64,000 nt of DNA from Candidatus Roizmanbacteria bacterium RIFCSPLOWO2_01_FULL_39_19 (GTDB lineage Bacteria > Patescibacteriota > Microgenomatia > UBA1406 > HO2-37-13b). A program made the position numbers and the translations under genes. Location of the stretch: positions 14,275 through 78,274 of the forward strand of contig MGAM01000013.1 of assembly GCA_001789725.1 (NCBI GenBank), written 5' to 3'. Below, in pieces: positions 44,817 to 60,101 of the stretch (within the stretch, counting starts at the first letter, position 1; each line of letters begins with the position of its first letter). The notes under the pieces were generated by a model that ran no database searches, was not told the origin of the DNA, and saw only the letters and a program-made list of their open reading frames with translations.

Positions 44817-44818
44817 GA

Positions 44819-45892: not shown

Positions 45893-45965
45893 AAGACGAA
45901 ATTATAGCATTATATGAGGCAAACATCAACTTTCAAAACCATTCTCTGTAGCAGCTTTTTTTAGA

Positions 45966-46151
45966 TATAGCAACCGCAAAACAAAATGTCGGTTTTTTAT
46001 ACTGTCATGCTGAACTCGCTGCGCCCTTCCGTAGTCTTGTACGAAGGAGGGTTTCAGCATCTCAACAATGAGATCCTGAAATAAAACTTGTCCCGAACTT
46101 GATTCGGAATTCAGGATGACAAATTAGACAGTTTGAATTGCGCTAGCTATA
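45966..46151. mobile_element. 186-bp MITE-like repeat, copy 2
   Basis: Direct copy of 26755-26940 with two substitutions. Confidence 0.8.
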
Positions 46152-46166
46152 ACTAGCTAATGGACT

Positions 46167-46709
46167 CTAGCAGTTGCTAAACATTAATGGAATTCCAGCA
46201 CATGAGATAATAAATCTTAAATAGATTGGCCACAAAAATATTACTGGCAGCGAACTGGCATCTAGCGCCACTCCTTGCACTAAGAAATACAGATAAGCAA
46301 CAATTCCGACAAAGCAATAACTTATTGTAAATCTTTTCCACGATTGCCAAATACTAAACCATACCAAAGAAAAAGACAAGATAAGCGATGCAATCAAAAA
46401 AGAAACTGCGGCAACACGCAGGTTTTGCGCTTTTTGATATTCCCTTTTGTATATTTGAGCAATTACGGGGGTTGGAACAATCTCCGGTTGGCGTGATAAC
46501 GACTCATTTTTAATCTGTGTTTTATCAATCGGCAGCTCTACGTGGATTACTGAACGTGTCCCAAATATTTGCTCACTGGTTGCAAACTCTATTTCAACAG
46601 CTTTAGTTTGCAGTTGTGCATGAATAATTTCGCCACCAACATAGATTAAAACACCAAGAAGAAAGTATAGAAACAAGAATTTGTTTATTGCAAAGATTTT
46701 TTTTGTCAC
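46167..46709 (-). CDS. Hypothetical membrane protein
   Basis: Several TM segments. Confidence 0.55.
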   Translation of the reverse strand: MTKKIFAINKFLFLYFLLGVLIYVGGEIIHAQLQTKAVEIEFATSEQIFGTRSVIHVELPIDKTQIKNESLSRQPEIVPTPVIAQIYKREYQKAQNLRVAAVSFLIASLILSFSLVWFSIWQSWKRFTISYCFVGIVAYLYFLVQGVALDASSLPVIFLWPIYLRFIISCAGIPLMFSNC

Positions 46710-46801
46710 AACTTTAACTAAAAAACAGTTTAATTCTTTGATAATCTGAAATCAACTTGTTTATTAAATTTTATGGTTAGGCGACATTCGTCCTGAAGGT
46801 A

Positions 46802-47617
46802 TTATTTAAAAGCAAACCAACCATATAGTCCGGCGTCATTTAATTTTGATTTTAATATTAATGGTGTATTAAATATAGGAAGTAGTTTCTTTAATTCAAG
46901 TTTTAAAGGGCTAATAAATTGCTCAAATTTATTAGCAACACCGCCGCCAATAACCATTATTTCTGGAGACCATAAAACAATTAAATTAGCTAAACCAACT
47001 GCAACCAATTTTGAATATGCTTTCCATATATTTTTATCATCACACTCTTCTGCTGTTATACCAAATATTTGTTTGAATGCTGTTCCGGAAGCATAAGATT
47101 CGAAACATCCTCTTTGACCACAGCTCCAAACTTTTGTCTCATAAAAGTTTATTATTTGATGGGCCGGCTCAATCCCGAAATGGTGAGGAGTAATTTTTTT
47201 ATTTATTATCAAACATCCACCGATACCAGAACTTAGGGTAAGATATCCGACTAGAGAATAATTTCTCCCCGCACCATATACGGCTTCTCCTAACGCAGCA
47301 ACATTCGCATCATTTTCTAAGAGAAATGAAGTTTTTGGGAATGCTTGGAACAGGGGCTGAAAAATATTTTGTCCCCGCCATAATTTTTTTTGTCCCCATT
47401 TAATAAAAATGCCTTTCTTTTTGTCAAGAGATCCAGCAGCAGCAATATTGATTTTTGAAATATCTAAAGATTGACTTTTTATCTCAAAAATAATTCTGTT
47501 AATTTGATCTTGAAAGTTGTCAAAAGTAGTAAAACGAATGATTTTGTCGAATTTTCTTTTATTGTTAGAAAAACCTAATCTTGAAGTAGACCCTCCAATA
47601 TCAATACAAATGGTCAT
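46802..47617 (-). CDS. ROK family sugar kinase
   Basis: DIGGS, LENDAN.AALGE, CGQRGCFE. Confidence 0.9.
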   Translation of the reverse strand: MTICIDIGGSTSRLGFSNNKRKFDKIIRFTTFDNFQDQINRIIFEIKSQSLDISKINIAAAGSLDKKKGIFIKWGQKKLWRGQNIFQPLFQAFPKTSFLLENDANVAALGEAVYGAGRNYSLVGYLTLSSGIGGCLIINKKITPHHFGIEPAHQIINFYETKVWSCGQRGCFESYASGTAFKQIFGITAEECDDKNIWKAYSKLVAVGLANLIVLWSPEIMVIGGGVANKFEQFISPLKLELKKLLPIFNTPLILKSKLNDAGLYGWFAFK

Positions 47618-47749: not shown

Positions 47750-47777
47750 GTCCAGGCTTGTAACAGACGTTAGAACT
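47750..47777 (+). repeat. Array junction J1 (type A right arm), preceded by a REP-like hairpin
   Basis: GTCCAGGCTTGTAACAGACGTTAGAACT after CCGTAGCTTTAACGAAGGATA. Confidence 0.85.
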
Positions 47778-47795
47778 CTTTTCGTTACACGAAAA

Positions 47796-48542
47796 TTATA
47801 CTTTTGTTCCAGTAATGATCGTTGCAAGACCTCCAGACATTGGTAACGATTCGACTTCAGAAAGTCCAACCTGATCAAATACCACGGTTAGATTAGATCC
47901 ATCTCCAAAGTCTGCTAAATATCTATTAATCATCAGAAAACGGTCATAGTGACCATCAAAAAGGGCGAAAGCGAGCGGCATCATTTTGTACATGTATAAG
48001 TGTTGTAGCCTTTGTAAGGCTCTCTGACTAGGTACCGTAATTTCTACTGTAGCGAATCTGCCACCGGGTTTTAACACACGTTTCATTTCCTTTGCAAAAA
48101 AATTGTGGAGATCCGAACACAATGTTTTCACCCCGTATCCAGAAAAAATGGCGTCTAAAGAATTATCCTCAAAAGGTAATGTGGTCGCGTCACTCGTCAT
48201 TAAGCTAACATTTGAGTATCTGTTTCTTTGTTTTCTTTGCTCTGCACCATTAATCATTCCCTTTGAAAAATCAATTGAGAAAATATGTCCATCGGGGCCA
48301 ATAAAGGGTAATAAGTGTTTCCACGATTCGCCTGTGCCTCCCATAAAATCTCCAACTACCATACCTTGCTTAAGTCTTAATACATGAGCGGCATTTCTTC
48401 TCCAAAGTTCGGTAAGCCCTAAAGAAGATAAAGTTGATACAAGTTCATACGAGCCTGATAGATCGTCGAAAAGTCCTTGTAGATATACGGGCGAGTAGTT
48501 TGTATCATGAACGGACGGATTTCCAGCTCCTTCTAAGCCCAT
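47796..48542 (-). CDS. UbiE/MenG-like SAM-dependent methyltransferase (cargo of J1-J2)
   Basis: D..GGTG, IDFS.GM, DAT.LPFEDNS.D, RVLKPGG. Confidence 0.85.
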   Translation of the reverse strand: MGLEGAGNPSVHDTNYSPVYLQGLFDDLSGSYELVSTLSSLGLTELWRRNAAHVLRLKQGMVVGDFMGGTGESWKHLLPFIGPDGHIFSIDFSKGMINGAEQRKQRNRYSNVSLMTSDATTLPFEDNSLDAIFSGYGVKTLCSDLHNFFAKEMKRVLKPGGRFATVEITVPSQRALQRLQHLYMYKMMPLAFALFDGHYDRFLMINRYLADFGDGSNLTVVFDQVGLSEVESLPMSGGLATIITGTKV

Positions 48543-48596
48543 AAGAAATCTATTTTAGCACTTTCTGACAAGATAATCAATTATGTAGACAATCAT

Positions 48597-48637
48597 GTCC
48601 AGGCTCGTGACAGATGTTAGAATCTTTTACGCACAAA
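48597..48637 (+). repeat. Array junction J2 (type A)
   Basis: GTCCAGGCTCGTGACAGATGTTAGAATCTTTTACGCACAAA. Confidence 0.85.
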
Positions 48638-48638
48638 C

Positions 48639-48986
48639 CTAATTGTCATTTTTCTCTAAAAGGACATTGAGTTGCTCAATGAGCGGAGGAATATCATTTT
48701 TGATAATGTCCCAGATGATGTTCGTGTCGACTTCCATATAGTCATGAATAGCAACATTACGAAAGTCGATAATATCTTGCCTTGGAATAGTGTCATGTTC
48801 TTTTCTGAACTCAGATGATATATTTGTTGCAGCCTCCCCAATTATTTCTAAATTTCTGATCGCCGCAGCTTGATCCCAATTATCTGTCTCGAAATGTTCA
48901 AAGTCATTAGCAGTTGCATAAGCAATAACAGCCTCAGCGGCATCTTTCATGTGCATTAAATAAGCATATGGATTACTATTTCTCAT
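48639..48986 (-). CDS. HepT-like (DUF86) HEPN toxin
   Basis: RNLEIIGEA, RNVAIHDY (RX4H). Confidence 0.9.
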   Translation of the reverse strand: MRNSNPYAYLMHMKDAAEAVIAYATANDFEHFETDNWDQAAAIRNLEIIGEAATNISSEFRKEHDTIPRQDIIDFRNVAIHDYMEVDTNIIWDIIKNDIPPLIEQLNVLLEKNDN

Positions 48987-49255
48987 ATAAATCTTTTTTC
49001 GTGTTTTAGTATGCTCTCTTTAAGATAGGGACTTATTCCGTTATAGCTTACTAGGTCAACTTCTTTTTGAAGCGATTTCTCTAGATCCCTTTTTAAACGT
49101 ACAAACAGAAGTCTCATTCCCTTAGGGGGTTGAATCAGTATGTCTATGTCACTTGTATCATCATAATCACCGCGTGCATAAGAACCAAATAATGCAGCTT
49201 TTTTTACGCCATATTGTTCTAGAAGCGGTATTATTTTCTGAGTTATTGTATCCAT
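48983..49255 (-). CDS. MNT (MntA-like) nucleotidyltransferase antitoxin
   Basis: LFGSYARG....SDID; overlaps the HEPN gene start. Confidence 0.9.
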   Translation of the reverse strand: MDTITQKIIPLLEQYGVKKAALFGSYARGDYDDTSDIDILIQPPKGMRLLFVRLKRDLEKSLQKEVDLVSYNGISPYLKESILKHEKRFI

Positions 49256-49351
49256 ATTTGTAATTCTATCAAATTGTTTGTAATTTGCGATGAGATAGTA
49301 ACCAATTTAATAGGCATTTAACTTTCGCCTTGTAGTAATTCGAACTGTTGT

Positions 49352-49402
49352 GAAAGTCTCAAAACTAAGTCCAGGCTAGTTGAATATGTAGGAAATTATT
49401 AT
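49352..49402 (+). repeat. Array junction J3 (type B), core at 49369
   Basis: GAAAGTCTCAAAACTAA-GTCCAGGCTAGTTGAATATGTAGGAAATTATTAT. Confidence 0.85.
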
Positions 49403-49444
49403 AGAGGTCAAATCTTCCAATATATAGCTTAATTGGAATAGACC

Positions 49445-49651
49445 TTATTGTTTGAAATGTTCGTGATTTTCATTCTCCCGAAAAAGTTCACTACAAGTCT
49501 CACAGAGATTTGCTGGTTCTAAGGGTTGTCCCTTGAATTTACATTTTTCTTCTTTACATACATTATCACCTGCTTCAAATTCTTCCTCTGTAATTCCCTT
49601 CATTTCAGGATGAAAACTGTAGCAAGTAAAACAAATATATCGTTTTTTCAT
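49445..49651 (-). CDS. Small Cys/His-rich putative metal-binding protein (sole cargo of J3-J4)
   Basis: CFTC, CKEEKC, CETC, HEH; TGATATAAT just upstream. Confidence 0.7.
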   Translation of the reverse strand: MKKRYICFTCYSFHPEMKGITEEEFEAGDNVCKEEKCKFKGQPLEPANLCETCSELFRENENHEHFKQ

Positions 49652-49660
49652 ATTAAGGTG

Positions 49661-49765
49661 ATTATATCAAAAGTCCGAATCTATTCCTCTGTTCAGATAG
49701 TTTGATATGTTTGAGTGAAGCTAAAAACCGAGTCCACGCTGGTTGAATATGTGGGGAATTATTAT
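49661..49765 (+). repeat. Array junction J4 (long left arm plus type B right arm), core at 49732
   Basis: ATTATATCAAAAGTCCGAATC...GTTTGATATGTTTGAGTGAAGCTAAAAACCGA-GTCCACGCTGGTTGAATATGTGGGGAATTATTAT. Confidence 0.85.
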
Positions 49766-50268
49766 TCAGCTAATATTGCCATTATTTGATTTGCTGTCTC
49801 TTCTGGTGTTTGATTAGTATTGTCAATTTTGTGCTCGTTACTGTACTTCGGTTCGTCTCTTAATTTTCTATTTAATTCAATAGATTGCTTAAAATCTCTG
49901 AAACCACTATCTCTTGATTCCGTAAGAACTCTTTGTTTGAGTATTTCATCGTTATTGAGATAGAGTGTAATAACTATATTTTCATAACTTTTGAGTTCTT
50001 TTATAATTCTTTCAATACCATTTTCTGTAAAGCCACCCACAATGACGTTCCTATAATTATGTTTTGCATAATTCTTCAATATGAATACTAAATTTTCAAA
50101 AGACATTTCTTCTTCAGCGGTGCTTGTATTTTTCCAGTCTTGATTAAGGTGGTAATCTCGGATCCAATCGTAATCAATATAAACAGAATCCAATTTCTTT
50201 TTAAGAAGCCTGGCGAGTGTGGTTTTACCCGATCCTTGAGCACCTAATATCAAGATAAAATTATTCAT
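49762..50268 (-). CDS. P-loop kinase (AAA_18/AAA_33-like)
   Basis: GAQGSGKTT, IDNT..TPEET. Confidence 0.85.
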   Translation of the reverse strand: MNNFILILGAQGSGKTTLARLLKKKLDSVYIDYDWIRDYHLNQDWKNTSTAEEEMSFENLVFILKNYAKHNYRNVIVGGFTENGIERIIKELKSYENIVITLYLNNDEILKQRVLTESRDSGFRDFKQSIELNRKLRDEPKYSNEHKIDNTNQTPEETANQIMAILAE

Positions 50269-50278
50269 ATCGAATCAA

Positions 50279-50362
50279 GTATATCAAAAGTCCAGATCTA
50301 TTCCTCTGTCGTAACAGTTTGATATGTTTGAGTGAAGCTAAAAAGTCTGTCCAAGGGGAGGG
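50279..50362 (+). repeat. Array junction J5: left arm near-identical to J4, right side tRNA-3'-like; core at 50349
   Basis: ...GTTTGATATGTTTGAGTGAAGCTAAAAAGTCT-GTCCAAGGGGAGGG. Confidence 0.75.
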
Positions 50363-50463
50363 TATCTTCCGTTAAAACTTCAGATACCAGGGATTCCCTC
50401 TTTCGCATAAAGCTTCAGAGGGCTAGCCATCCTCCGATTTATCCTTCTCTAAAGCTACTGATA
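50361..50463. repeat. Three REP-like hairpins at the 3' end of the GIY-YIG gene
   Basis: GGTATCT..AGATACC (50361-50388), CCCTCT..AGAGGG (50396-50422), TATCCTTCTCTAAAGCTACTGATA (50440-50463, inside the CDS). Confidence 0.75.
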
Positions 50464-50707
50464 ATGATTTGAAAAATCTTTTCTTCATAAATGCTATACC
50501 ACTCCCACTTTTTAAATATTTTTCGAATGTGATAGCCTGTTTTTCAGTTTTAAAAGCACAGTACCACTCAAGTTCATAATGTAAGTTTGACTTAGTAGAT
50601 TTTACACGGCCGGAAAGGTGTTCTCTAAGACGATTTTTCAAATCACTTGTATAACCTACATAATAACGATCGGTTTTGTAGTTTCTCAAAATATACGTAT
50701 AGAACAT
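50423..50707 (-). CDS. Stand-alone GIY-YIG nuclease
   Basis: FYTYIL..YYVGYT.DL..RL.EH, FEKYLKSGSG. Confidence 0.92.
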   Translation of the reverse strand: MFYTYILRNYKTDRYYVGYTSDLKNRLREHLSGRVKSTKSNLHYELEWYCAFKTEKQAITFEKYLKSGSGIAFMKKRFFKSLSVALEKDKSEDG

Positions 50708-50730
50708 AGTACTTTAGAGCTATACAGCTT

Positions 50731-50787
50731 GCTATCTTTCGTTAAAACTTCAGATAGCCAGCTATCCGTAGCTTTAGCGAAGGATAG
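50731..50787. repeat. Inverted pair of REP-like hairpins upstream of GIY-YIG
   Basis: GCTATCTTTCGTTAAAACTTCAGATAGC and CTATCCGTAGCTTTAGCGAAGGATAG. Confidence 0.75.
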
Positions 50788-50820
50788 TCCACGCTGGTTG
50801 ATTATGTAGGAAATTATTAT
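50787..50820 (+). repeat. Array junction J6 (type B), preceded by the same REP-like hairpin as J1
   Basis: GTCCACGCTGGTTGATTATGTAGGAAATTATTAT. Confidence 0.85.
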
Positions 50821-50829
50821 CAGACCTAC

Positions 50830-51183
50830 TTATTTACAATTTGAATAACAAAACGATATTTTCCCTATTACATCAAGTCTACGAAGTGGCAGAGGATTGT
50901 TTTTCACAAAAATCATATCCTGTTCAACTCTATCTACAATTCCGACCTCATTAACGTCAGGATTTTTTAAAGACTTAAAAGCAATAATATCCCCCATTTT
51001 GAGAGAACCAAGTCTATAACTTAGCTTGTTTACAATGACATATGCTCCAACTGGATATTTTGAAATTGTATTACGTAGTTGTAATGGTTGAAATGCGAAG
51101 AGATATAGGAAAATGGGAATTAGAAACAATAGAAATATACCGAAGACCAAAATTATTATGGATTTGAATAGTTTATCCACCAT
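50830..51183 (-). CDS. S26 signal-peptidase-like protein, catalytic residues doubtful
   Basis: TM then VIVNKLSY..GDIIAF..VIGK; start set at ATG 51183 below TGATATACT. Confidence 0.65.
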   Translation of the reverse strand: MVDKLFKSIIILVFGIFLLFLIPIFLYLFAFQPLQLRNTISKYPVGAYVIVNKLSYRLGSLKMGDIIAFKSLKNPDVNEVGIVDRVEQDMIFVKNNPLPLRRLDVIGKISFCYSNCK

Positions 51184-51190
51184 AGTTTTC

Positions 51191-51310
51191 AGTATATCAG
51201 AAACCAAGAAGTCCGAATCCACACTCCTGTTGCGATAGTTTGATACATTTCGGTGAGGCTAAAATGTTGGTCCAGGCTCGTAACAGACGTTAGAACTTTT
51301 TACGCACAAA
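51191..51310 (+). repeat. Array junction J7 (long left arm plus type A right arm), core at 51270
   Basis: AAGTCCGAATC...GATAGTTTGATACATTTCGGTGAGGCTAAAATGTTG-GTCCAGGCTCGTAACAGACGTTAGAACTTTTTACGCACAAA. Confidence 0.85.
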
Positions 51311-51324
51311 GAAAGGTATGATTG

Positions 51325-51570
51325 CTACTTTTTTTTGTAAGCAATTGATGGAGAAGTAGATCGAGGCAAAATAGATTGAACAATATTTTTTGGCAATTGC
51401 ATAGCCGCCTGCTTCAAAAATACAGAGGCATCGAGAATCTCAAGCAGTACCGCTTCTCTTTTTGGGGAGAAATGCACAATAAGATCGCCCGATTGCTCAG
51501 CATAATCTATGTTTTGATCATTTAGCTCGATAAGCAAAATATCATCCTCTTTGTTGTATTTAAATTTCAT
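51325..51570 (-). CDS. DUF2283 protein (putative antitoxin)
   Basis: Y..EDDILLI..LEILDAS. Confidence 0.85.
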   Translation of the reverse strand: MKFKYNKEDDILLIELNDQNIDYAEQSGDLIVHFSPKREAVLLEILDASVFLKQAAMQLPKNIVQSILPRSTSPSIAYKKK

Positions 51571-51572
51571 AT

Positions 51573-51830
51573 TTAATAATACCTTCCTTTCTCTGCGGGA
51601 TATACCGTAATTATCTTTATTATATCATCTTCAAGTTTGTATACAACTCTCAATATGAGTTTAGTATCGAAATTTTTCGAGGCAATAATTTTTGGTACAT
51701 CCGACTCTGAATCAATATGATCAGGATTGTTGACAGTATCTTTAATCTGTGCCAGGCTTATTTTAAAACCTCTTTTGGCAAGCAAAGGAATTTTATCTTT
51801 AACAAGATGCCTACTTAGAATGAATTTCAT
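51573..51830 (-). CDS. DUF4258 protein (putative RelE-like toxin)
   Basis: SRH, NPD, LRVVY...IITVYP; upstream of DUF2283. Confidence 0.8.
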   Translation of the reverse strand: MKFILSRHLVKDKIPLLAKRGFKISLAQIKDTVNNPDHIDSESDVPKIIASKNFDTKLILRVVYKLEDDIIKIITVYPAEKGRYY

Positions 51831-51967
51831 AAACTCAATTCTAACACTTTGCACAGTTAAGATTCTAGCCTTGTGGGGGAATTATTACAAAAGTTATTCT
51901 GTTACAACAAGAGTTATAATTTTACCTCTCTTGATTTTGATCTAATTTCCAATTAGGATAATAACAG

Positions 51968-53065
51968 ATGAGAAAAAACAAAAGAAGTAAGAAGCCATAC
52001 AATCCTTCTAATAGGAAATTCTTAATTGTAGCTTTATTAATTATAATTGTTGTATTATTTACTGGCAAAACCTTTCTACAAAAACAGGAGTCCCAATCCA
52101 ACAATGTGCTAGGATTACTCCTCGCTAAAGGAGACAACGATTCAGGTGGATCATCCGGAAGTGGTTCGGGGAGTGGATCGTCTGAGAGTGGAAGCTCGGA
52201 TTCAAGTGAAAGCCGATCTGATTCGGGTTCTTCAAATTCTGAATCTTCAGGTTCAGAATCATCTGGAAGTTCTGAGTCAACAAGTGGCACGGGAGGAGCT
52301 TCTGGTTCTTCGGGTTCATCTGGGGTTTCAAACATCGTTCCAACACGAACGAGGTTCATAAATCCCACAACAGGTATTCGCACGGAAACAGAGGTGAAAC
52401 AAGATGAAGAGCGTACCGAAGTAAGACTTAGTGAGGGTGAGCGTATCAGAACAAGAACGAAAGATGGGAGAACAAGAATTGATATTACCTCAGGAGGTGT
52501 GAAAACCAGACTTGAAATAAGAGATGGTAGGTTTATTATAAAAGCAGAACAGGGAGATGGAACTGAAGTTGAACTTGAAGATGACGCGCTCTTTAAGATT
52601 GAGGAAAGATTGGCTACAAACCAGATAAAAATAGCAACAGATGAGGCAAATAGATTTGTAATACAACGAGGTAATGCCGGTGCTGTTAGTCAATTCCCGC
52701 TATCCATCGATCTTGCCACCAATACGCTGATAGTGAACACCCCTTCAGGACAAAAAAATGTAACAGTGCTTCCAGATCAGGCAGTGCAAAATCTTCTCGT
52801 TGCAAACATTGTTAGTCGTTTAGGTAGCAGTGCGGTTGTTAATTCCTTTCGAACTGGTGAGACCTCAACGCTTGCTCAAGTTATAACATTGGGTGAGCAA
52901 AATGGTATTCCAATCTATGAAATCAATGGAATCTCAGATCAAAGACTACTGGGCTTTGTTCCCGTAACTATTGAAAAGACTATTGCTGTTTCTGCCGAAA
53001 CTGGAGCCGTAGTCTCAACTCAAGTCTCATTTGTTAATAAGGTGTTAGATTTTCTCTCCTTTTAA
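51968..53065 (+). CDS. Membrane-anchored protein with Ser/Gly linker
   Basis: TM, poly-S/G tract, C-terminal RLLGFVPV..VSAETG. Confidence 0.7.
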   Translation: MRKNKRSKKPYNPSNRKFLIVALLIIIVVLFTGKTFLQKQESQSNNVLGLLLAKGDNDSGGSSGSGSGSGSSESGSSDSSESRSDSGSSNSESSGSESSGSSESTSGTGGASGSSGSSGVSNIVPTRTRFINPTTGIRTETEVKQDEERTEVRLSEGERIRTRTKDGRTRIDITSGGVKTRLEIRDGRFIIKAEQGDGTEVELEDDALFKIEERLATNQIKIATDEANRFVIQRGNAGAVSQFPLSIDLATNTLIVNTPSGQKNVTVLPDQAVQNLLVANIVSRLGSSAVVNSFRTGETSTLAQVITLGEQNGIPIYEINGISDQRLLGFVPVTIEKTIAVSAETGAVVSTQVSFVNKVLDFLSF

Positions 53066-53080
53066 ACTCTACATTGTCTT

Positions 53081-53132
53081 GAAAGCCTAAAAAAGTAAGT
53101 CCAGGCTGGTTGAATATGTTGGAAATTATTAC
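53081..53132 (+). repeat. Array junction J8 (type B), core at 53099
   Basis: GAAAGCCTAAAAAAGTAA-GTCCAGGCTGGTTGAATATGTTGGAAATTATTAC. Confidence 0.85.
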
Positions 53133-53141
53133 CAGCAACAA

Positions 53142-53708
53142 TCATTTCTCTAAAATCCCCTCAATTCCTTCCAGTAACCTATCAAATTGCGTATACCCAG
53201 CACTTGCATTGAAGTGACCAGAGTTTGATATAAACGTTAAATCTACTCCAAGTTTACGTGCAAGCTCCTCACCATTTCCCAAAGAAACATATGGATCGTT
53301 ATCTGAATGATACACAGTAGCAATTCCTGCATTGGATTTTATTGTTTCCCAATCAAAGTTGAATCCATTACTGAAAGCATAATCACCATCCCAATTTTTA
53401 ATAGGTTTGACGCCGATTGGTGCAGAAACAAGAACAACCGCTTTAACTGGCTCTTGAAGTCTTTCAAGTAGTCGTAACAGGAATAACCCTCCCAAACTGT
53501 GACCAATTAAAATTGTATTGTCTTTTATGCTTTGTTCATAATCTTTAAGAACCTTGAGCCACGCTTCAAGAGATTGTCCTTCAGGGGTAGGAAACTGAGG
53601 AATAGTGGTGTCATATCCTGCTTTAACAAGCTCTTGTTTTAGCCACGGAAACCAGTTCTCACCTGGATGACCACCTGTGCCATGAAAAATAAAGAGGTTT
53701 TCTTTCAT
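53142..53708 (-). CDS. RBBP9/YdeN family alpha/beta hydrolase
   Basis: HG..G...NWFPWL, GHSLG, SDNDPYV, GHFN. Confidence 0.9.
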   Translation of the reverse strand: MKENLFIFHGTGGHPGENWFPWLKQELVKAGYDTTIPQFPTPEGQSLEAWLKVLKDYEQSIKDNTILIGHSLGGLFLLRLLERLQEPVKAVVLVSAPIGVKPIKNWDGDYAFSNGFNFDWETIKSNAGIATVYHSDNDPYVSLGNGEELARKLGVDLTFISNSGHFNASAGYTQFDRLLEGIEGILEK

Positions 53709-53805
53709 AGAGGAAATTATATCAGAAGTTCCATCTTTCAAATTGTCATAGGATTGAGCTCAATAGTAGCGAGAAGGATAAAGTTTCATGTATACTTTCT
53801 TTTAT

Positions 53806-54798
53806 ATGAGTGAAGCTGGAGATATGGGCGAACCACCAGTATCAAGATTGCGTGGTGATTTAGTTCAAAGACAACAATCAAAAGAAGCAAAAGGGTCTCC
53901 TTCGGAACGATTTCACCTTGCCACTACAGTCAACACTGTTGGTGATGAAGATGGCCCACCTTTTTCAGCGTCTTATCAACTTGATAATACAGGAAATCTC
54001 AAAGGAAGTCTTACTCCGAGAAATGGAGAGATGGTGAGCGTGCTATCTGTTGCAGATGGACTAGGTGGAGGTGCTTCAGAACTTCACAATGGATATGGCT
54101 CAACTCCACGAACTGGAGCCTATATTGCTGCACGAGAGGTACAATCTATTATTCCCGAACTTATTGCGAGTGATACAGGTTTTTTATCTGCATCAACCGC
54201 AGACATAAAATCACGACTTGAAGAGGCATTATCACAAAGGTTTCGTACTATGTCAGAGCGGTATCCACCTACACATGGAGAAAGTAGATTGAAAAGTGAT
54301 CTTATCAATCCGCTTGCCACAACATTCTCAACAGCCATCTTACATGAAACACCAGAGGGTACTAAGGTAAAAGTCTTTTGGAGAGGAGATTCCCCAGTAG
54401 TTATTGCAACACCCACAGAAACTTACGCAACAGAAACTGGCACAACTGGTGATGCAGCAATGGGCAGAGAAGGAAGTGTTAACCTATCAAATCAGTCTTT
54501 ACAGGCGGCAGAATTTACTTTTCCAGCAGATACGATTGTTGTATTCGCTGCATCTGATGGATGGTTCAAACGACCTGGCACTGATGGAATTCAAAGAGGA
54601 GTCCAAGACCTAATACAGGCATTGGGAGAAGCTGTTGGATCAAGTGATGTTCAACCAAGAATCAAAGCTAAATACGTTGTTGGATTGGTAGAACCTGATG
54701 ATACAACGCTTGCTCTTATAACGAATAGAAATAGTCCATCAGAATTACATCTGATACCGCCGATAAGTATTAAGCCGATAACCCCATTATCTATATAA
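53806..54798 (+). CDS. PP2C/SpoIIE-like phosphatase
   Basis: DED, VADGLGG, TT, GDS, ASDG, DDTT. Confidence 0.75.
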   Translation: MSEAGDMGEPPVSRLRGDLVQRQQSKEAKGSPSERFHLATTVNTVGDEDGPPFSASYQLDNTGNLKGSLTPRNGEMVSVLSVADGLGGGASELHNGYGSTPRTGAYIAAREVQSIIPELIASDTGFLSASTADIKSRLEEALSQRFRTMSERYPPTHGESRLKSDLINPLATTFSTAILHETPEGTKVKVFWRGDSPVVIATPTETYATETGTTGDAAMGREGSVNLSNQSLQAAEFTFPADTIVVFAASDGWFKRPGTDGIQRGVQDLIQALGEAVGSSDVQPRIKAKYVVGLVEPDDTTLALITNRNSPSELHLIPPISIKPITPLSI

Positions 54799-54811
54799 AA
54801 GCTTTAATAGC

Positions 54812-55966
54812 TTATGTGAGAGAACCTGCCCTTTTATAAAAATACGTATTAGCAAGTAAAACCGCCTGTGCACATACAAGGGCTGGGACTATTCCCCAAA
54901 TATCTGCTATGACGCCCAAAATAAATGACGACAGGGCAATTAAAAGGCACGTAGTAAATGATTGAAGCGACGCCATTGTTGCTCGTTGTTCATTAGTAAA
55001 TTCTTGATGGAAAAGGGTGTTCTCAGCAACATTGGCTGAGCCGTAAAATAATGAAGTCAATGCCATAAAGATCGGCGAGAGTGGAGTAATGAAAATCGCA
55101 GCAAGAGTAGTTATAATTGGCGTAGATATAGTATCCGTAATAATTACTTTTATTGGTGTAAATCTTTTAATTATCTTTCCACCAAAATAATAACTTACCG
55201 CAGCAGCAACTCCTGAGACAGTGCGAGGAATACCAAGAGCCCATGTTGGCCAGACTAGATTGTAAAAAGCAGCCTTAAACTCATACGCAGCCTCTCCCAC
55301 GCCATAGTTAATGGTTCCAGCGATAGTGAGTAATCGTAATTTTTTATTCTCAAGTGTCTTTTTAATAGCTATATTTAAGTGTTGAAATACATTCCCAGTC
55401 TTTTTAGTATGTACTTTTGGTTCTATCAACTGTGTACTCAATAACACCGATATAACCTGAGGAATAACAGAGAGCCACATAACAAGCGGAAATGAGATAT
55501 ATGCTATGAAGCCTCCTAAAACTGCAGAAACTGCTGATGCTACCTGAAACATTGAACTCGTTTGTCCAAGATGATGAGAGTATTCCTGTTCTTGATTGTG
55601 TTCTCTTAGTGTATCGTGAAGTAATGAAGTGTTATTACCACTAAAAAACGATCTACCTAATCCTTCAAAGATAGCTCCAACCACAAGAATCCAATATGAG
55701 ATTCCGATTGCATAAAAAACTACTGCTAAGACACCTGATAATGCTCCTAAAATCATCGTATTTTTCCTTCCAATTCTGTCTGAAAAAATACCTGTTGGGA
55801 CTTCAAGTAAGGCCGTTGAAATAAAAACAACAGAAATAATACTCATGGCAAGTGCATACGAGCCAGTAATTCTTTGAAAGTAGAGAATTAAGATTGCAGC
55901 AAAGAGACGAAAACTTGAGAAGAAGTTAAACCAAGTGAGGACTCTAATGTTTCTGTGAGGCGACAT
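54812..55966 (-). CDS. MFS transporter
   Basis: EVPTG..SDRIGRK, many TMs, RAT..S. Confidence 0.9.
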   Translation of the reverse strand: MSPHRNIRVLTWFNFFSSFRLFAAILILYFQRITGSYALAMSIISVVFISTALLEVPTGIFSDRIGRKNTMILGALSGVLAVVFYAIGISYWILVVGAIFEGLGRSFFSGNNTSLLHDTLREHNQEQEYSHHLGQTSSMFQVASAVSAVLGGFIAYISFPLVMWLSVIPQVISVLLSTQLIEPKVHTKKTGNVFQHLNIAIKKTLENKKLRLLTIAGTINYGVGEAAYEFKAAFYNLVWPTWALGIPRTVSGVAAAVSYYFGGKIIKRFTPIKVIITDTISTPIITTLAAIFITPLSPIFMALTSLFYGSANVAENTLFHQEFTNEQRATMASLQSFTTCLLIALSSFILGVIADIWGIVPALVCAQAVLLANTYFYKRAGSLT

Positions 55967-56107
55967 TATTCAAGTGTATCAGAAGTTCTAACCGTTCCGC
56001 CTCATTGTAGTTTGGATTGTTAGGGCAGGTATCCATTAAACTAGACACATATTCTCACTGACAAATAGTGTTAAAAGTAACAATAAGTGAGGAGGTGAAC
56101 CACGTTT

Positions 56108-56362
56108 ATGGGTACATTTAAATTCATACCAAAAGAAACAAAGGAACAGATATTAAAACGAATAAAAGAAGAAGGTATCACTGTTTTGCAAGCAGCGGCA
56201 GACGCAGGCATCTCTACAAAGTCAATATATAACTGGATGCGAAGCAAAACCATTTCAGATTGTTCTGTTTTGGAAATTAGTCGCCTCAAGCGGGAAAACA
56301 AAGAATTACTAGAGATAATAGGTAGACTAACCCACAATTTAACTAAACCAAAAAAAAATTAA
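56108..56362 (+). CDS. IS3 OrfA (HTH)
   Basis: GIS..SIYNW, EISRLKREN.EL. Confidence 0.85.
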   Translation: MGTFKFIPKETKEQILKRIKEEGITVLQAAADAGISTKSIYNWMRSKTISDCSVLEISRLKRENKELLEIIGRLTHNLTKPKKN

Positions 56363-56372
56363 AGAGATCCGT

Positions 56373-57209
56373 ATGATAGTTACAGAAAAAAAACGAGAAA
56401 GTAAAACACAATTAGCCAAGAACCTTGGAGTTTCAAGATCGTCTCTGTACTACAAAACAAAAAGAGATGATCAAGACCAAGAAATGAAAAAACAAATCTT
56501 AATTGTGCTTGGTTTACATCCAAGTTACGGGCATAAAAGAATTGCTCTTGAGTTTGGACTTAACAACAAACGGATACGTCGTGTTATGAAAAAATACGAC
56601 ATAAAACCATACCAAAGAAGGGTTCAGAGACTTAGAAAAAAAGAAGATGAGGGAAAAGAAGCAACGGAATTAAAGAATGAGATTGTTGGATTTTGTCCAA
56701 TAGCACCAAACATCGTCTGGGCATCCGATTTTACATATATTAAATTTCAAGGATCATTTATCTATCTGGCAACAGTCATTGATATATATACCAGAGAGAT
56801 TATCGGCTGGAATATATCAATGCGACATGATACGAATTTAGTCTTGGAGGCATTAAAACAAGCTATCGAGAGGATACAAACAAAACCACTCTATCTGCAT
56901 TCTGATCAAGGATCAGAATATGACGCAAGGGAGTATGAAAACCATGTTATGGAAAAAGGTATTGTTATGTCCATGAGTCACAAATCATCTCCCTGGGAAA
57001 ATGCTTATCAGGAATCTTTTTATTCACAATTTAAAGTTGATTTAGGACACGTTGATAGATTTGATACAAGAGAACAGTTAATTGAAGAAATGTATCAAAC
57101 AATTTATTACTACAACAATGAAAGAATACATGGTAGTTTAAAGATATCTCCTGTTAAATTTAAACAAAATCATGAAAATCGGTTAGAGAAAGTGAGAATA
57201 ACTGTCTAA
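56373..57209 (+). CDS. IS3 OrfB DDE transposase
   Basis: WASDFTYI, HSDQGSEY, ENAYQESF, YYNNERIH. Confidence 0.92.
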   Translation: MIVTEKKRESKTQLAKNLGVSRSSLYYKTKRDDQDQEMKKQILIVLGLHPSYGHKRIALEFGLNNKRIRRVMKKYDIKPYQRRVQRLRKKEDEGKEATELKNEIVGFCPIAPNIVWASDFTYIKFQGSFIYLATVIDIYTREIIGWNISMRHDTNLVLEALKQAIERIQTKPLYLHSDQGSEYDAREYENHVMEKGIVMSMSHKSSPWENAYQESFYSQFKVDLGHVDRFDTREQLIEEMYQTIYYYNNERIHGSLKISPVKFKQNHENRLEKVRITV

Positions 57210-57227
57210 AGAAATGGGTACTTGACA

Positions 57228-57665
57228 AGCAGTTCCTGTTCCTGCACCAACATTGCCGTTTTGTACTGGTTCTGATGAAAGGTTGTCAACAGCTTCAGCA
57301 CCATACTCTGGGTCATATTGAAACAGTTCAACTCCAAGATCGTACACGATAGCTCCACTAACCTCTGGAATGATTGACTTCCCAGTTTTCCATCCTATTC
57401 CTTGTTCTGTAAGCTTTTGAGAAATTGGTGTGGCAGATAGTAACCCACTCAAACTTCCACCAGCAATAAAAATCCCTCTCCTCTCTGGGAAACTTTTTCC
57501 ATTTCGCAGGTTTTCTGTTGAGTACAATCCAGGAGCTCCACCGTAGGACACGTATGAGACAGGCAATACCTTATCGAAGAGAATAAAAGTGCAACCCGTA
57601 AGTTTATCTGGATGAGTGGAATGTCCAACCTGAACACCAGATAAAGCAGTGAGAGTATTGTTCAT
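57228..57665 (-). pseudogene. Peptidase S58/DmpA (P1) family gene truncated by IS3
   Basis: GVQVGH..LTGCT, GGAPG, GGS..GL, GNVGAGTG then the IS end; C-terminal half absent. Confidence 0.85.
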
Positions 57666-57671
57666 ACAGGT

Positions 57672-57759
57672 ATTATATCTCAGCTTTTTAGATTGTTATA
57701 AAAGCCTAAACGGAGCGTGTCCAGGCTCGTAACAGACGTTAGAACTTTTTGGGCACAAA
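57672..57759 (+). repeat. Array junction J9 (type A), core at 57719
   Basis: GATTGTTATAAAAGCCTAAACGGAGCGT-GTCCAGGCTCGTAACAGACGTTAGAACTTTTTGGGCACAAA. Confidence 0.85.
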
Positions 57760-57830
57760 TCTGAGGGATAAGTTATATAGATATTTAAGGCCCTATATCA
57801 ATTTTTCTGCTATAATAGGCCAAACTGTAT

Positions 57831-59381
57831 ATGACAGCAGAAGTAGCTTCTCATACAAAACAGGTCTTTTTAGTCGCTGAGGGTTCAATTGGTCCAGTAG
57901 AAAGAGATCGAGGCGGAAACTGGTATGAACCACTGGGAGTTTGGGTTCATCCCGAAATACAATCCTATATGGATTCAATGCCGGAAGCAGAACGTCTACT
58001 GGTTGAACGATCATTTCCTCTAAGTTTTGCTGTAGCCACTGCTTATAACGCTCAAATTGCTGACGTTGATTCTCATCAATTATGGCCACAATCTTTTTAT
58101 GAAAATGACGGTACGCAAAAACTACTTGAAGCGGCTGAAGTAAATCCTTCAATTGGAGATCCATTTGCAGTGGTCAGAGGTCAACCACCATATGGCGTTA
58201 TTCCCTTCAGTCTTACATATTTTGATGAACTTCAATCTGCTGTTGCTGCTTTAGAAGATATGATAGCAACAGACAGTCCGTCCGCCGTAAATTTAGCTCC
58301 ATATTTAGATGCACTCCGAAGAGCATACACACCCGATGAATTACGGACCAGTGATTTACCCTATTTGCATGAGGCGGATACAGCATGGGTGCACCTTGAT
58401 CCCGACACAGAGTTAATTTTTTTTGCAGAACCTACCGAGTCTTATTCTGATAACCTTGCTGCATTACGAGATGACGATAGCATAAGAAGATGGGCAATTG
58501 ATGTTGCAAATGCAAACGGACTTGGGCCATGGAAGAATTTTTTTGAGTTTAGGTTGATGCAGAAAGTTGATTTTGTGGTTAACCAAGAAGAAGTAGATGC
58601 AATTAGAGCAACAACTCGTAATCATTTCGTTAGACCAGGAGATGCACCTGTCCCTGCAAGTTTAGAGTTTAGGCGCTTACTTCTAGCCTCTGGACACGGA
58701 GCTCATCCCGCAAGAACAGCAAAAAATTACCCAAATTTTAATGATATTCGAAACGATCCAAATGGTGGTTATAAGAACGTACTCTACACCAATATGATTG
58801 AGGAAGGATTAGATAGTCAAGCCGTACCAATTCTGATGCATGCTTTTGGCACTGATTTTATGAGTCGATTCCCCAAAGAAAGACTCATGAGAGGCTCAAC
58901 ATTGCGGATTATCGGACATGAAGAAAATCATTCTTACAGGGTACACAAGGGTAATCTTGCTTTGGAAGAATTAAAGGCAACCATTGATGGCTTTGTGGCA
59001 GTTGATGAAGCGGGGAGATTTAAGGACGAAATAGATACGGTTTGTTTATCTACCGTCGGAGGAGCATTGTTTATTCGTTATAAAACTGCAAAAGCTCGGG
59101 CTGAAGGAGACACAAGAACCGAAAGAGGCTATAAGGCATACCATACCGGTGATACTATCATGATGAATTATCTTGCAGCAGCTGGGGCGTTTATTGACGT
59201 TAATGGTCATTATGGGGATATTGATTTTGATAATTTCAGGACAGCAATGAGAGACCTATGTAAAGAACTAGAGCAAGTCAGAGAAGGGACTGTTTCAGCT
59301 TCTGATTTTCAAGCAGCATGGGGAGCAGAAGAGATCTGGGATAGCTTTAAGGTTCTGCCTCCTGGAGTAGAACTCCACTAA
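57831..59381 (+). CDS. Zincin metallopeptidase, M49/DPP-III-like
   Basis: AKNYPN, KNVLY.N, HEENH, LEELKA. Confidence 0.6.
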   Translation: MTAEVASHTKQVFLVAEGSIGPVERDRGGNWYEPLGVWVHPEIQSYMDSMPEAERLLVERSFPLSFAVATAYNAQIADVDSHQLWPQSFYENDGTQKLLEAAEVNPSIGDPFAVVRGQPPYGVIPFSLTYFDELQSAVAALEDMIATDSPSAVNLAPYLDALRRAYTPDELRTSDLPYLHEADTAWVHLDPDTELIFFAEPTESYSDNLAALRDDDSIRRWAIDVANANGLGPWKNFFEFRLMQKVDFVVNQEEVDAIRATTRNHFVRPGDAPVPASLEFRRLLLASGHGAHPARTAKNYPNFNDIRNDPNGGYKNVLYTNMIEEGLDSQAVPILMHAFGTDFMSRFPKERLMRGSTLRIIGHEENHSYRVHKGNLALEELKATIDGFVAVDEAGRFKDEIDTVCLSTVGGALFIRYKTAKARAEGDTRTERGYKAYHTGDTIMMNYLAAAGAFIDVNGHYGDIDFDNFRTAMRDLCKELEQVREGTVSASDFQAAWGAEEIWDSFKVLPPGVELH

Positions 59382-59396
59382 ACTCTATTAACCAAT

Positions 59397-60083: not shown

Positions 60084-60101
60084 ATTGTAAATATTCCAAA
60101 A

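Follow-up and report, generated by a model that had tools for sequence, protein, structure and literature searches.

Small or tandemly stacked mobile modules have been described in several forms. IMEX and the pdif modules of Acinetobacter plasmids lack an integrase and carry a single gene or a handful of genes, toxin-antitoxin pairs among them; they lie between short conserved sites, can form tandem stacks and depend on the housekeeping (Xer) recombinase for their movement. In streptococci, cis-mobilizable elements (CIMEs) are non-autonomous derivatives flanked by att sites that are mobilised in trans. For the tycheposons of Prochlorococcus, successive integrations at a single tRNA 3′ end have been outlined to displace older elements outwards and to leave partial tRNA copies between the elements (10.1101/2020.12.28.424599). 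Likewise, tandem accretion at the tmRNA gene has been outlined for the ssrA islands of Dehalococcoides (PMC3146451). A search-level look at the literature returned no account of the cassette system presented below.

The window, the whole stretch of 64,000 nucleotides analysed here, lies on contig C13 of the source assembly G000 (22 contigs, 658,267 bp) of Candidatus Roizmanbacteria, a small bacterium from groundwater. In a sequence check, all nine GTCCA cores of the preliminary description (J1 to J9) were found in place on the plus strand. A repeat search of the window placed arm A at 47750, 48597, 51270 and 57719 and arm B at 49369, 49732, 50787 and 53099. The division into two right-arm types thus holds for eight of the nine junctions and fails for the one at 50349, which has a hairpin-type arm. 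An arm of this type was also found in another family (G061, L072 position 5218). The same repeat search gave a left-arm family of 93 nt (49644-49736, 50261-50353 and 51182-51274) that precedes J4 with arm B, J5, and J7 with arm A. Left-arm and right-arm types pair freely, as had been proposed.

Furthermore, we searched G000 and 223 genomes of one order (81 genera) for the arms. In the 22 contigs of G000, the regular expressions for arm A and arm B gave four matches each, all on the plus strand of C13 inside the 10-kb locus, and no match elsewhere. GTCCANGCT alone had 16 matches across the genome, of which eight were in the locus. Arm B was present in 15 of the 223 genomes, belonging to 12 of the 81 genera, and also in 29 metagenome contigs, and the reversed arm patterns that served as controls gave no match in either 61 or 223 genomes. 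Among species genomes, the exact arm-B pattern was found in seven stretches, five titled Ca. Roizmanbacteria and two titled 'uncultured Gammaproteobacteria' MAGs; the latter apparently correspond to G076:C15 and G088:C1. The arms are thus confined to this locus and to one order, and the junctions represent locus-specific joints of a recombination type, as claimed earlier, and not scattered promoter or terminator motifs.

All junctions and, unless stated otherwise, all genes of the array read on the minus strand. J2 to J4 and J6 to J9 were each recovered by repeat search, regular expression and arm profile. J1 (47750..47783; core, which is TGGAC on the minus strand, and arm A; arm profile E 2.9e-6) adjoins on its far side the ROK gene, presumably the original tRNA-distal flank, and this conserved flank also includes infB, nusA and a gene for a 180-aa membrane protein (43365..47617, minus strand). 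Cassette 1 carries a UbiE/COQ5-type methyltransferase (47796..48542; Pfam PF01209, E 4.5e-35). Behind J2 (arm A, 48597..48630), cassette 2 (cargo 48639..49255) holds a toxin-antitoxin pair of HepT (48639-48986; PF01934) and an MNT nucleotidyltransferase (48983-49255; PF18765), proteins with relatives in the arrays of L073 and L078. J3 (arm B, 49369..49402) is followed by cassette 3, encoding a 68-aa protein with no family match (49445..49651), and J4 (arm B, 49732..49765) by cassette 4, encoding a P-loop kinase-like protein (AAA_18 / shikimate-kinase-like; 49762..50268). At J5 (50349..50398; sequence and folding), the minus strand shows a hairpin (stem GGTATC/GATACC, 16-nt loop), then CTCCCCT and then the core. 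The cargo of cassette 5 is a 94-aa GIY-YIG nuclease (50423..50707; Pfam PF01541), the gene of which is flanked by four hairpins with a similar loop (hairpin repeats). Between J6 (arm B, 50787..50820) and J7 (arm A, 51270..51303), cassette 6 encodes a short S26 signal-peptidase-like protein (50830..51222).

The 1829-bp unit next to J7 kept its boundaries in our analysis but is not a single unit. By eye, we found a core-less arm-B remnant inside it (51866..51887, minus strand; no match with the arm profile), probably a decayed junction, and two units have therefore probably fused. The first (51325..51854) encodes DUF2283 (51325-51570) and a DUF4258 / RelE-like nuclease (51573-51854), likely a toxin-antitoxin pair, and the second a 365-aa protein rich in Ser/Gly that matches no family and is encoded antisense to the array (51968..53065, plus strand). 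Similarly, the 4620-bp unit next to J8 (53099..53132; its arm B fits the consensus) is bounded as described, but it is composite and not simple, with left-arm-like remnants (53697-53817 and 55972-55988, repeat search) and an IS3-family insertion sequence (56026-57224; 34-nt inverted repeats at 56026-56059 and 57191-57224). This unit (53142..57665, mixed strands) further encodes a Ser_hydrolase (53142-53741, minus), a 336-aa protein of no assigned family (53788-54798, plus), an MFS transporter (54812-55966, minus) and the N-terminal half of an S58 peptidase (57183-57665, minus). The arm A of J9 (57719..57750), the last junction seen, belongs to whatever lies to its right, where a larger mobile element adjoins (57831..64000, mixed strands). 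In this element, an HEENH motif is found in a 516-aa protein (57831-59381) that may be one further cargo unit. Also present are six ORFs that match no family (59397-62073 and 62912-63649) and genes for an HTH_3 regulator and a terS-like protein; between these and the contig end (L009) lie genes for an SSB-like protein and a primase-polymerase.

In reverse complement the core reads TGGAC, which in tRNA-Tyr covers the final three bases of the acceptor stem, the discriminator A and the C that opens CCA, and which terminates 20 of 20 tRNA-Tyr genes of the family among those listed. In L007, L037, L072, L073, L075, L078, L079, L095, L103/L105 and L116, arrays with these same arms set out from an intact tRNA-Tyr gene, directly at its 3′ end; G006/L110 and L113 have an array inverted with respect to this gene. 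The suggestion of one attB per locus is thus borne out in the relatives, where it is the tRNA-Tyr 3′ end, but not on the contig of the window, where we looked for tRNA-Tyr and found it absent. Contig C8 of G000 opens with the first 66 nt of tRNA-Tyr and therefore breaks inside the gene. The order array, ROK, nusA, infB in G000 agrees with the order tRNA-Tyr, cassette, nusA, infB in G015, and we infer that the tRNA-Tyr of G000 lies beyond the right-hand element.

The locus is probably a tandem row of integrase-less cassettes that accreted by site-specific recombination at the tRNA-Tyr 3′ end and are mobilised in trans. Very small cassettes, mostly with one gene or one toxin-antitoxin pair, would stack at the extreme 3′ end of tRNA-Tyr. 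On the minus strand, each would consist of a variable, promoter-like 5′ arm that falls into families, the cargo, a conserved 3′ arm of ~30 nt (type A, B, tRNA-like or hairpin) and TGGAC, which is common to cassette and tRNA-Tyr and would mark the exchange point. The sequences establish the anatomy of the sites, the association with tRNA-Tyr in relatives, the fact that cassettes are shared as modules and the lack of a linked recombinase; circular intermediates, the enzyme and the exact exchange dinucleotide are putative.

Alternatively, islands or prophages with integrases of their own might have integrated successively at tRNA-Tyr and decayed, so that the units are scars that were never small circles. 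Indeed, some arrays (L073 9904, L079 10612 and L007 13183) harbour tRNA-like arms that comprise 17-20 nt from the 3′ end of tRNA-Tyr, as in ordinary island scars. Decay, lost cores and an IS insertion in units 7 and 8 and the larger element adjoining J9 also fit, and tandem integrations with remnants at tRNA genes are known from the outline of tycheposons (10.1101/2020.12.28.424599). However, decay would not leave both arms intact around single intact genes. Counting 79 junctions in 37 non-redundant loci, we obtained 42 units bounded by neighbouring junctions, with a median length of 969.5 bp (range 358-4620 bp). Arms A and B, ~90% identical across two families, are not decayed tRNA copies either. 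Moreover, integrase fragments were absent, as the tyrosine-recombinase profile gave nothing at E<0.01 among 1717 ORFs.

The same one-gene unit and arm also occur in two genera. G088 and G047 have a cassette of 85% nucleotide identity between different neighbours; the homology ends exactly at the downstream TGGAC, whereas the upstream arm differs (arm B vs tRNA-like). This supports the earlier claim of modular cassettes, common to different genera, with breakpoints at the core. In addition, another unit occupies different array positions in two congeners, and L112 has a 106-nt junction alone in common with L102/L074/L114, the cassette on the arm-B side being different. In each of four public runs, 5 to 8 assembled contigs matched the window rightwards from 53099 (J8) and diverged leftwards; circle junctions and empty sites were not seen in these contigs. 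We consider decayed islands an unlikely origin of the units.

Slightly less likely still is a history in which no dedicated recombinase took part. The arms would be conserved 3′-end and promoter modules for expression, and after DNA uptake these repeats of 30-90 nt would serve homologous recombination or gene conversion that shuffles the cassettes. Several 5′ arms contain promoter-like sites (57699-57672, 50287-50260, 49272-49245 and 48580-48552; 50 in the whole region vs 33 expected by chance), TGTGATATAAT-like boxes are found ~38 nt past the core in several loci, and arm B frequently begins with TAATAA. Shuffling would give the same breakpoints at the end of the common block (TGGAC), and the lack of a recombinase linked to the arrays fits as well. 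The arms could also be kept for gene expression. On the other hand, every array has its first joint with the tRNA itself, which has only TGGAC plus 1-2 bases in common with arms A and B, too little identity for homologous recombination, and expression signals should also occur elsewhere in the genome, which the arms do not. Of five terminator-like hairpins found, none lies at a junction, and the junctions fold no better than shuffled sequences.

A shift of 5 nt in the TTCNAAY heptamer is also unexpected for expression signals. In 22 of 23 distinct tRNA-Tyr genes this heptamer and TGGAC are 9 nt apart, and among 65 distinct arms the distance is 14 nt in 50 and 15 nt in seven, whereas eight lack the heptamer. 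Across 65 sites, the information content stays high between -29 and the core and drops almost to zero past it, and a TTTAG-type motif after the core was found in only 19. Part of the conservation upstream of the core reflects the way in which the sites were collected, namely with an arm profile.

The nuclease of cassette 5 raises the question of homing with collateral transfer, in which small GIY-YIG enzymes would cut tRNA 3′ ends and look-alike arms and repair would copy donor cassettes in. Genes of this type directly follow tRNA-Tyr or an arm plus TGGAC in the window, L072 (twice), L095, L107 and L113, they stand beside other tRNAs in L078, L046 and contigs C8 and C10 of G000, and other genera have close homologues of 77-84% identity. 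However, homologues are present in 184 of the 223 genomes of the order, mostly without arm-B arrays, and were not found in the array-bearing G003, G007 and G094. The 94-aa protein is a bare nuclease domain, and homing in general requires long flanking homology, which makes this route very improbable.

In our preferred reading of cassettes accreted at tRNA-Tyr, the recombinase is supplied from elsewhere. As previously noted, site-specific recombinases are missing from all units of the window; in the array, the sole recombination enzyme is the IS3 DDE transposase (Pfam). Nor was a site-specific recombinase among the 25 commonest Pfam families of 101 ORFs of at least 170 aa. A tblastn search for serine recombinases yielded one array-bearing locus, in G019 (L080, the same locus as L117), with the gene ~8 kb from the arm. 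As no recombinase is in or beside any array, we infer that the enzyme acts in trans and is encoded outside the array. A bigger element using the same site, for instance the primase-polymerase element adjoining J9, might supply a large serine recombinase, an assignment we make tentatively. We favour it because of the 5-bp motif shift between tRNA and arm and because such recombinases sit at tRNA genes in this order: the gene overlaps or abuts a tRNA or tmRNA 3′ end in at least 12 of 18 loci, and in a relative of the window's element it lies between the primase-polymerase gene and tRNA-Asn. Resolvase-family matches were absent from the array-bearing G076 (95% complete) and G007 (89% complete). 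Since recombination of attP with attL is not usual for serine integrases, tandem growth needs the special assumption that 5′ arms replace the tRNA flank. The second candidate, the universal host Xer-like tyrosine recombinases, appears doubtful to us. The one-sided site conservation is odd for a dimeric recombinase of either the serine or the tyrosine type.

Compared with the known systems, the locus resembles large serine recombinase attP/attB sites in the very short identity at the exchange point, in the placement of recombinases at tRNA 3′ ends in this order and in a 7-8-nt motif whose distance to the centre is 5 nt longer in the element arm than in the tRNA arm. It differs in that no such recombinase is linked to the arrays except ~8 kb away in G019 and that the second half-site is poorly conserved. 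To our knowledge, serine integrases do not build attP-like tandem joints. The motif offset fits the 5-bp shift of a zinc-ribbon-domain motif, one motif being read by serine integrases with this shift between attB and attP, as outlined in PMC3783163. With IMEX and pdif modules, the arrays have small integrase-less modules in common, and Xer-like recombinases are available, two per genome in 10 of 10 genomes examined. However, the site here is a tRNA end and all units have the same orientation; a dif-like 11-6-11 site was not evident in the junctions, and a crude dif scan of G000 gave one weak match, on another contig. Repeated accretion at one tRNA 3′ end and partial tRNA copies between units are as in tycheposons, ssrA islands and CIMEs. 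Those elements, in contrast, span kb to tens of kb and have, or had until recently, an integrase together with replication or transfer genes, whereas a typical unit here is one gene and the arms are a dedicated conserved family with ~5 nt of tRNA identity, not tRNA copies.

The locus also resembles integrons and CALINs, which are attC clusters lacking an integrase: tandem same-orientation arrays of mostly single-gene modules of ~0.4-1.5 kb without a recombinase, each with a conserved 3′ recombination element and with accessory and toxin-antitoxin cargo. In addition, RYYYAAC-like (ATTCAAC) and GTTRRRY-like (GTTGAAT) words were seen by eye in arm B. Nevertheless, that the locus is a true integron array without integrase, with atypical attC sites, is the least credible of the explanations considered. 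In 18 single-strand folds of the nine junctions (-3.4 to -10.5 kcal/mol, z -2.1 to +1.2), nothing stood out except the hairpin-rich flank of J6, and the junctions do not fold like attC, in agreement with the preliminary description. They are conserved in primary sequence and are not folded imperfect palindromes, attachment is at the tRNA-Tyr 3′ end, and the arrays have no IntI, attI or Pc platform and no adjacent integrase. The only tyrosine recombinase of G000 reaches 48 bits with the integron-integrase model (cut-off 265 bits) and scores as Xer-like. Cassettes here perhaps also bring their own promoter. The locus thus looks like a gene-collecting system that would work like an integron but is built differently.

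All nine GTCCA cores are present where the preliminary description had placed them, on the plus strand of the window. Repeat finding assigned one conserved 3′ arm type, arm A, to the cores at 47750, 48597, 51270 and 57719 and the second, arm B, to those at 49369, 49732, 50787 and 53099. The ninth core (50349) has an arm of another type, which recurs in another family at position 5218 of locus L072. On the variable 5′ side, repeat finding yielded a left-arm family of 93 nt at 49644-49736, 50261-50353 and 51182-51274. When the source assembly (G000; 22 contigs, 658,267 bp) was searched with regular expressions for arms A and B, four matches were obtained for each, all at this locus. The window occupies positions 14275-78274 of contig C13 in this assembly. 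The junction motifs are thus not ordinary promoter or terminator words spread over the genome, an alternative raised in the preliminary description. In one public metagenome run (X2), the third core (49369) starts with C in place of G in a single contig of depth 9.

Read on the minus strand, where the core is TGGAC, the locus consists of tandem cassettes in the same orientation with about one gene each. The cargo of the smaller units, on the minus strand, comprises a UbiE-type methyltransferase, a HepT/MNT toxin-antitoxin pair, a 68-aa protein, a P-loop kinase-like protein, a 94-aa GIY-YIG nuclease, a short S26-like peptidase and a DUF2283/DUF4258 pair. Two larger, partly decayed units hold a 365-aa protein (plus strand), a serine hydrolase, a 336-aa protein, an MFS transporter, an IS3-family insertion sequence and part of an S58 peptidase. 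The IS3-family element (56026-57224; orfA 56108-56362, orfB 56373-57209, 34-nt inverted repeats) sits inside the S58 peptidase gene, of which only the N-terminal half is left. The array is flanked on the left by ROK, a membrane protein, nusA and infB, and on the right by, in order, a 516-aa HEENH protein, unknown genes, an HTH regulator, a terS-like gene, an SSB-like gene and a primase-polymerase that continues past the contig end. The DNA to the right of the last junction (57719) ends in arm A, as the small cassettes do. Scans of the window for tRNA genes and Rfam families gave no match.

Arm B, with up to three mismatches, was found in 15 of 223 genomes of the order, representing 12 of 81 genera and two of three families, while the reversed control gave none. 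Arm A, with up to two mismatches, occurs in two further genera of the family (3/61 genomes including G000; control 0). An exact arm-B pattern, loosened after a first, stricter version had given a single match, hit seven stretches among species genomes and 29 metagenome contigs. Five of the seven stretches are titled Candidatus Roizmanbacteria; the other two are titled uncultured Gammaproteobacteria MAGs and appear to correspond to contigs of two genomes of this order (G076:C15 and G088:C1). In viral contigs, neither the arm A nor the arm B pattern was matched. A profile of the arm together with the core, derived from 36 sites taken by coordinates, was used for scanning, as the preliminary description had proposed, and at a cut-off of E ≤ 0.001 it returned 79 junctions in 37 non-redundant loci. 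The 42 intervals between adjacent junctions have a median of 969.5 bp (range 358-4620 bp), which are upper bounds on unit size as joints with tRNA-like or hairpin arms are uncounted.

The preliminary description had also called for a comparison of cassette content and order, and across relatives the same cargo families appear in different order. Protein clustering showed that GIY-YIG, HepT/MNT, GNAT and serine hydrolase families recur in the arrays of different genomes. A GNAT-like cassette shares 85% nucleotide identity between G088 and G047, which belong to different genera. This homology takes in arm B and ends exactly at the downstream TGGAC, beyond which the sequences are unrelated; the upstream arms are unlike, with arm B in one genome and a tRNA-like arm in the other. 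These limits indicate that arm B forms the 3′ terminus of the cassette carrying the gene before it and that exchange takes place at or beside TGGAC. A 1.1-kb unit occupies the second or third place of the array in G061 and about the seventh in the congeneric G062, and locus L112 has only a 106-nt junction in common with L102, L074 and L114, after which a different cassette follows.

In four public metagenome runs that were compared with the window, its order is kept in single contigs over 46125-51218 (X1) and 46124-50497 (X3). At 53099, 5 to 8 contigs per run agree rightwards and diverge leftwards; these contigs possibly come from related organisms, and assembled contigs cannot show circles. 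No contig spanned a site from which a cassette had been excised or contained a circle, although contigs cannot demonstrate absence. In X1-X3, contig depth beyond ~53.6 kb on the right is roughly half of that on the left side, a measure that cannot rank the parts of the stretch. Between nusA and the next gene, the segment 45995-46125 contains two long hairpins with no Rfam match. Its contig depth is ~20 times that of its surroundings in all four runs (in X1, 296 against ~15) and it has loose ends on both sides; it looks like a high-copy repeat common to many organisms of the community.

The core is also the end of a tRNA gene. TGGAC corresponds to the final three acceptor-stem bases, the discriminator A and the first C of CCA, and it terminates all 20 tRNA-Tyr genes inspected in the family. 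In relatives, the joints are as expected of integration at a tRNA end, with TGGAC repeated at each one. An array of such joints in G007 ends at an intact tRNA-Tyr(GTA) adjoining nusA, and arrays begin directly at tRNA-Tyr in L072, L073, L075, L078, L079, L095, L103/L105 and L116. In G006/L110 and L113 the array lies near tRNA-Tyr and yet is inverted, for which a secondary inversion is the only explanation that we can offer.

In G000 itself, ARAGORN found no tRNA-Tyr. A DNA search located the first 66 nt of the gene at the very start of contig C8, indicating that it is interrupted by the contig end; several other draft genomes likewise have tRNA-Tyr at the end of a contig. In G015 the order is tRNA-Tyr, one Peptidase_S51 cassette, arm B, TGGAC, more variable DNA, nusA and infB, with which the minus-strand order of the window (array, ROK, nusA, infB) agrees. 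From this shared gene order we infer that the G000 tRNA-Tyr would lie to the right of the window, beyond the primase-polymerase element and off the window's contig. In G001, a genome of the same genus, the tRNA-Tyr contig has nothing in common with the window at 43-58 kb.

Next, 65 distinct sites were aligned on TGGAC. Conservation is strong from about −29 to the core, with the type B consensus TAATAAGTTCCAACATATTCAACCAGCC, and information content is about zero after TGGAC; part of the conservation upstream of the core follows from having found the sites by means of the arm profile, whereas the drop after the core does not. Of the 65 sites, 19 have a TTTAG-type motif that approximates the left motif in reverse complement, mostly 7-9 nt past the core. 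The 5′ (downstream) arms group into families, some of which have TGTGATATAAT-like boxes ~38 nt past the core. Several of the 5′ arms in the window contain promoter-like sites, and the region has 50 matches where 33 are expected by chance, a weak indication that 5′ arms act as cassette promoters. Terminator-like hairpins were absent from all junctions of the window.

The conserved arms resemble the 3′ part of the tRNA itself. In 22 of 23 distinct tRNA-Tyr genes, a T-loop-like heptamer, TTCNAAY, is found 9 nt away from TGGAC. In the 65 distinct arms it lies 14 nt from TGGAC in 50 cases and 15 nt in seven, and it is missing from eight. Elsewhere, in other genomes, a ~26-nt insert containing GACTTCGCTCAGGGCAAGC interrupts arm A after GTTCTAAC (L082, 3866-3923; contigs of X1, X2 and X5), and words like this insert follow truncated arms in L040, L046, L074, L075 and L083. 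The insert seems to be a small repeat that targets the arm.

The junctions had been described as different from attC sites, and folding bears this out. Among 18 single-strand folds (nine junctions, both strands), z-scores ranged from −2.1 to +1.2, with 16 of them between −0.9 and +1.2. Except for the hairpin-rich flank of the GIY-YIG gene, the junctions do not fold better than their shuffles, and there is no conserved imperfect palindrome. The sites are therefore not attC-like.

We then asked which enzyme might act at these sites. In agreement with the earlier statement that no unit encodes a recombinase, no site-specific recombinase was found in the window. Among 101 non-redundant ORFs (≥170 aa) located no more than 2.5 kb from a junction, the 25 commonest Pfam families likewise included none, in a tally that omits single-member families, which might conceal one; two of the 101 ORFs have an IS-type rve domain. 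A tyrosine-recombinase profile built from 15 members of this order gave nothing at E < 0.01 in the 1717 ORFs of all loci and the window. The 516-aa ORF beside the last junction (57831-59381) was considered as a hidden recombinase and rejected, as it has no match in Pfam, PHROGs or NCBIfam and carries a metalloprotease-like HEENH motif.

Two further gene families were considered and discarded. GIY-YIG genes often lie directly after tRNA-Tyr or an arm; homologues occur in 184 of the 223 genomes, a single genome giving as many as 15 matches, and three genomes with arrays yielded none. Because the gene is ubiquitous and was not found in these three, it was rejected as the recombinase, and we read the GIY-YIG genes as a separate selfish element that prefers tRNA ends. 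Small GIY-YIG genes adjoin tRNA genes (Tyr, Gly, Lys) at G000:C8:58-327, G000:C10:10706-10933 and in L072, L078, L095, L113 and L046. The GIY-YIG gene of the window is flanked by four hairpins (50349-50440 and 50733-50786) with similar 14-17-nt loops, GAAGYTTTA..CGRAA, two of which have compensating stem changes. The loop motif occurs only four times in the G000 genome (outside the window at G000:C3:12909); the hairpins possibly form a structured element that is carried along with the nuclease gene. Y1_Tnp-like genes were found in four of five genomes checked, unlinked to the arrays (that of G000 is beside a housekeeping gene), and a Y1 transposase was therefore rejected as the mover. Compared with IS200/IS605 elements and their derivatives, insertion after a fixed pentamer agrees, but arms A and B lack a conserved hairpin.

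Host tyrosine recombinases do not discriminate between genomes with and without arrays: two Xer-like genes are present in 5/5 array-bearing and 5/5 array-free genomes. The single PF00589 gene of G000, on another contig, is Xer-like, scoring 48 bits against the integron-integrase model TIGR02249, for which the cut-off is 265 bits. No 11-6-11-type dyad of a dif-like 28-nt site was seen in the junction consensus, and a scan of G000 for a classical dif, crude and on a genome 77% complete, gave nothing useful. We rate the host Xer-like recombinases as a rather unlikely, second candidate for the trans-acting enzyme.

The ten genomes checked have between 0 and 8 large serine recombinases each, and two array-bearing genomes are without any Resolvase match. 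In at least 12 of 18 loci, the recombinase gene overlaps or abuts a tRNA or tmRNA gene at the 3′ end of the latter, and three further loci are cut by the contig end at that point. The overlap with the 3′ end of the recombinase gene is convergent for Asn, Pro, Glu and Gln tRNAs and tmRNA (L146, L148, L151, L153-L158, L011, L128 and L080), which looks like the standard integrase arrangement of the lineage. When two large serine recombinases were used in tblastn, a single array-bearing locus was hit (L080, the same as L117), where the gene is ~8 kb from the arm and adjoins tRNA-Asn. The sole large serine recombinase of G000 is on contig C15, beside the tmRNA gene. At G000:C15:48553-55600, a 26-aa copy of its C-terminus lies ~5 kb from the gene, which suggests a ~6.6-kb element integrated in the tmRNA gene.

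In G061, a relative of the window's primase-polymerase (44% identity) is followed by a large serine recombinase and then by tRNA-Asn. If this gene order is carried over to G000, a serine recombinase would lie in the unassembled gap before tRNA-Tyr. The relatives of this neighbouring element in G012 and G061 have no arms, and a pattern search of viral and species genomes gave no close relative of the primase-polymerase.

According to PMC3783163, serine integrases recognize one 7-8-bp motif whose distance from the centre is 5 bp shorter in attB than it is in attP, and few identical bases suffice at the exchange point. Such a shift fits the spacings of 9 nt in the tRNA and 14 nt in the arms, for the left half-site only. 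Large serine recombinases are not known to use attL as a target. Given the weak second half-site, this limitation and the two array-bearing genomes without a Resolvase match, we consider a large serine recombinase a tentative candidate with rather less than an even chance of being the trans-acting enzyme. The share of our expectation that is left by this candidate and the Xer-like enzymes goes to something else.

Candidate Phyla Radiation genomes are very small, and little is understood of how accessory genes are acquired and exchanged by these bacteria, from which classical integrons are not known. A possible, still doubtful reading of the arrays is that of a dedicated capture platform, independent of integrons, in which the 3′ end of tRNA-Tyr would play the role of attI. 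Single-gene circles with a ~35-nt tRNA-mimicking arm would be inserted successively at tRNA-Tyr by a trans-acting recombinase. The candidate large serine recombinase might read the arm as attP and the T-arm of the tRNA as attB, by means of the 5-bp motif shift. The outcome would be an age-ordered cassette library, exchanged among genera of these tiny-genome symbionts. If true, this single-gene-scale cassette system, which is tRNA-anchored, has its own conserved recombination arms and spans two families within one order as well as many groundwater metagenomes, would represent a second evolutionary answer, reached independently, to the integron task. If the arrays are ordinary island scars, they are a curiosity of one lineage only. 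Two testable DNA sites, the arm with its TGGAC and the 3′ end of tRNA-Tyr, can be used in the hunt for the recombinase, and a serine integrase with so short a natural site could be a possible tool.

Literature searches on CPR integrons, Roizmanbacteria tRNA-Tyr, Patescibacteria islands and cis-mobilizable elements, which covered sources outside subscription journals, gave no description of such a system. In function, the arrays are like an integron cassette array or CALIN, but they differ from integrons in that no IntI-type integrase lies beside the array and the sites show no attC folding. In mechanism, they are closest to tandem accretion at tRNA and tmRNA genes, as described for tycheposons in 10.1101/2020.12.28.424599, and to non-autonomous elements flanked by att sites. 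Compared with autonomous tRNA-targeted elements, the units encode no integrase and would therefore be of the non-autonomous kind. In contrast to the tRNA accretion systems, they consist of single genes, have a dedicated family of arms and share only ~5 nt of identity with the tRNA. There is a real chance that they represent a distinct cassette-capture system.
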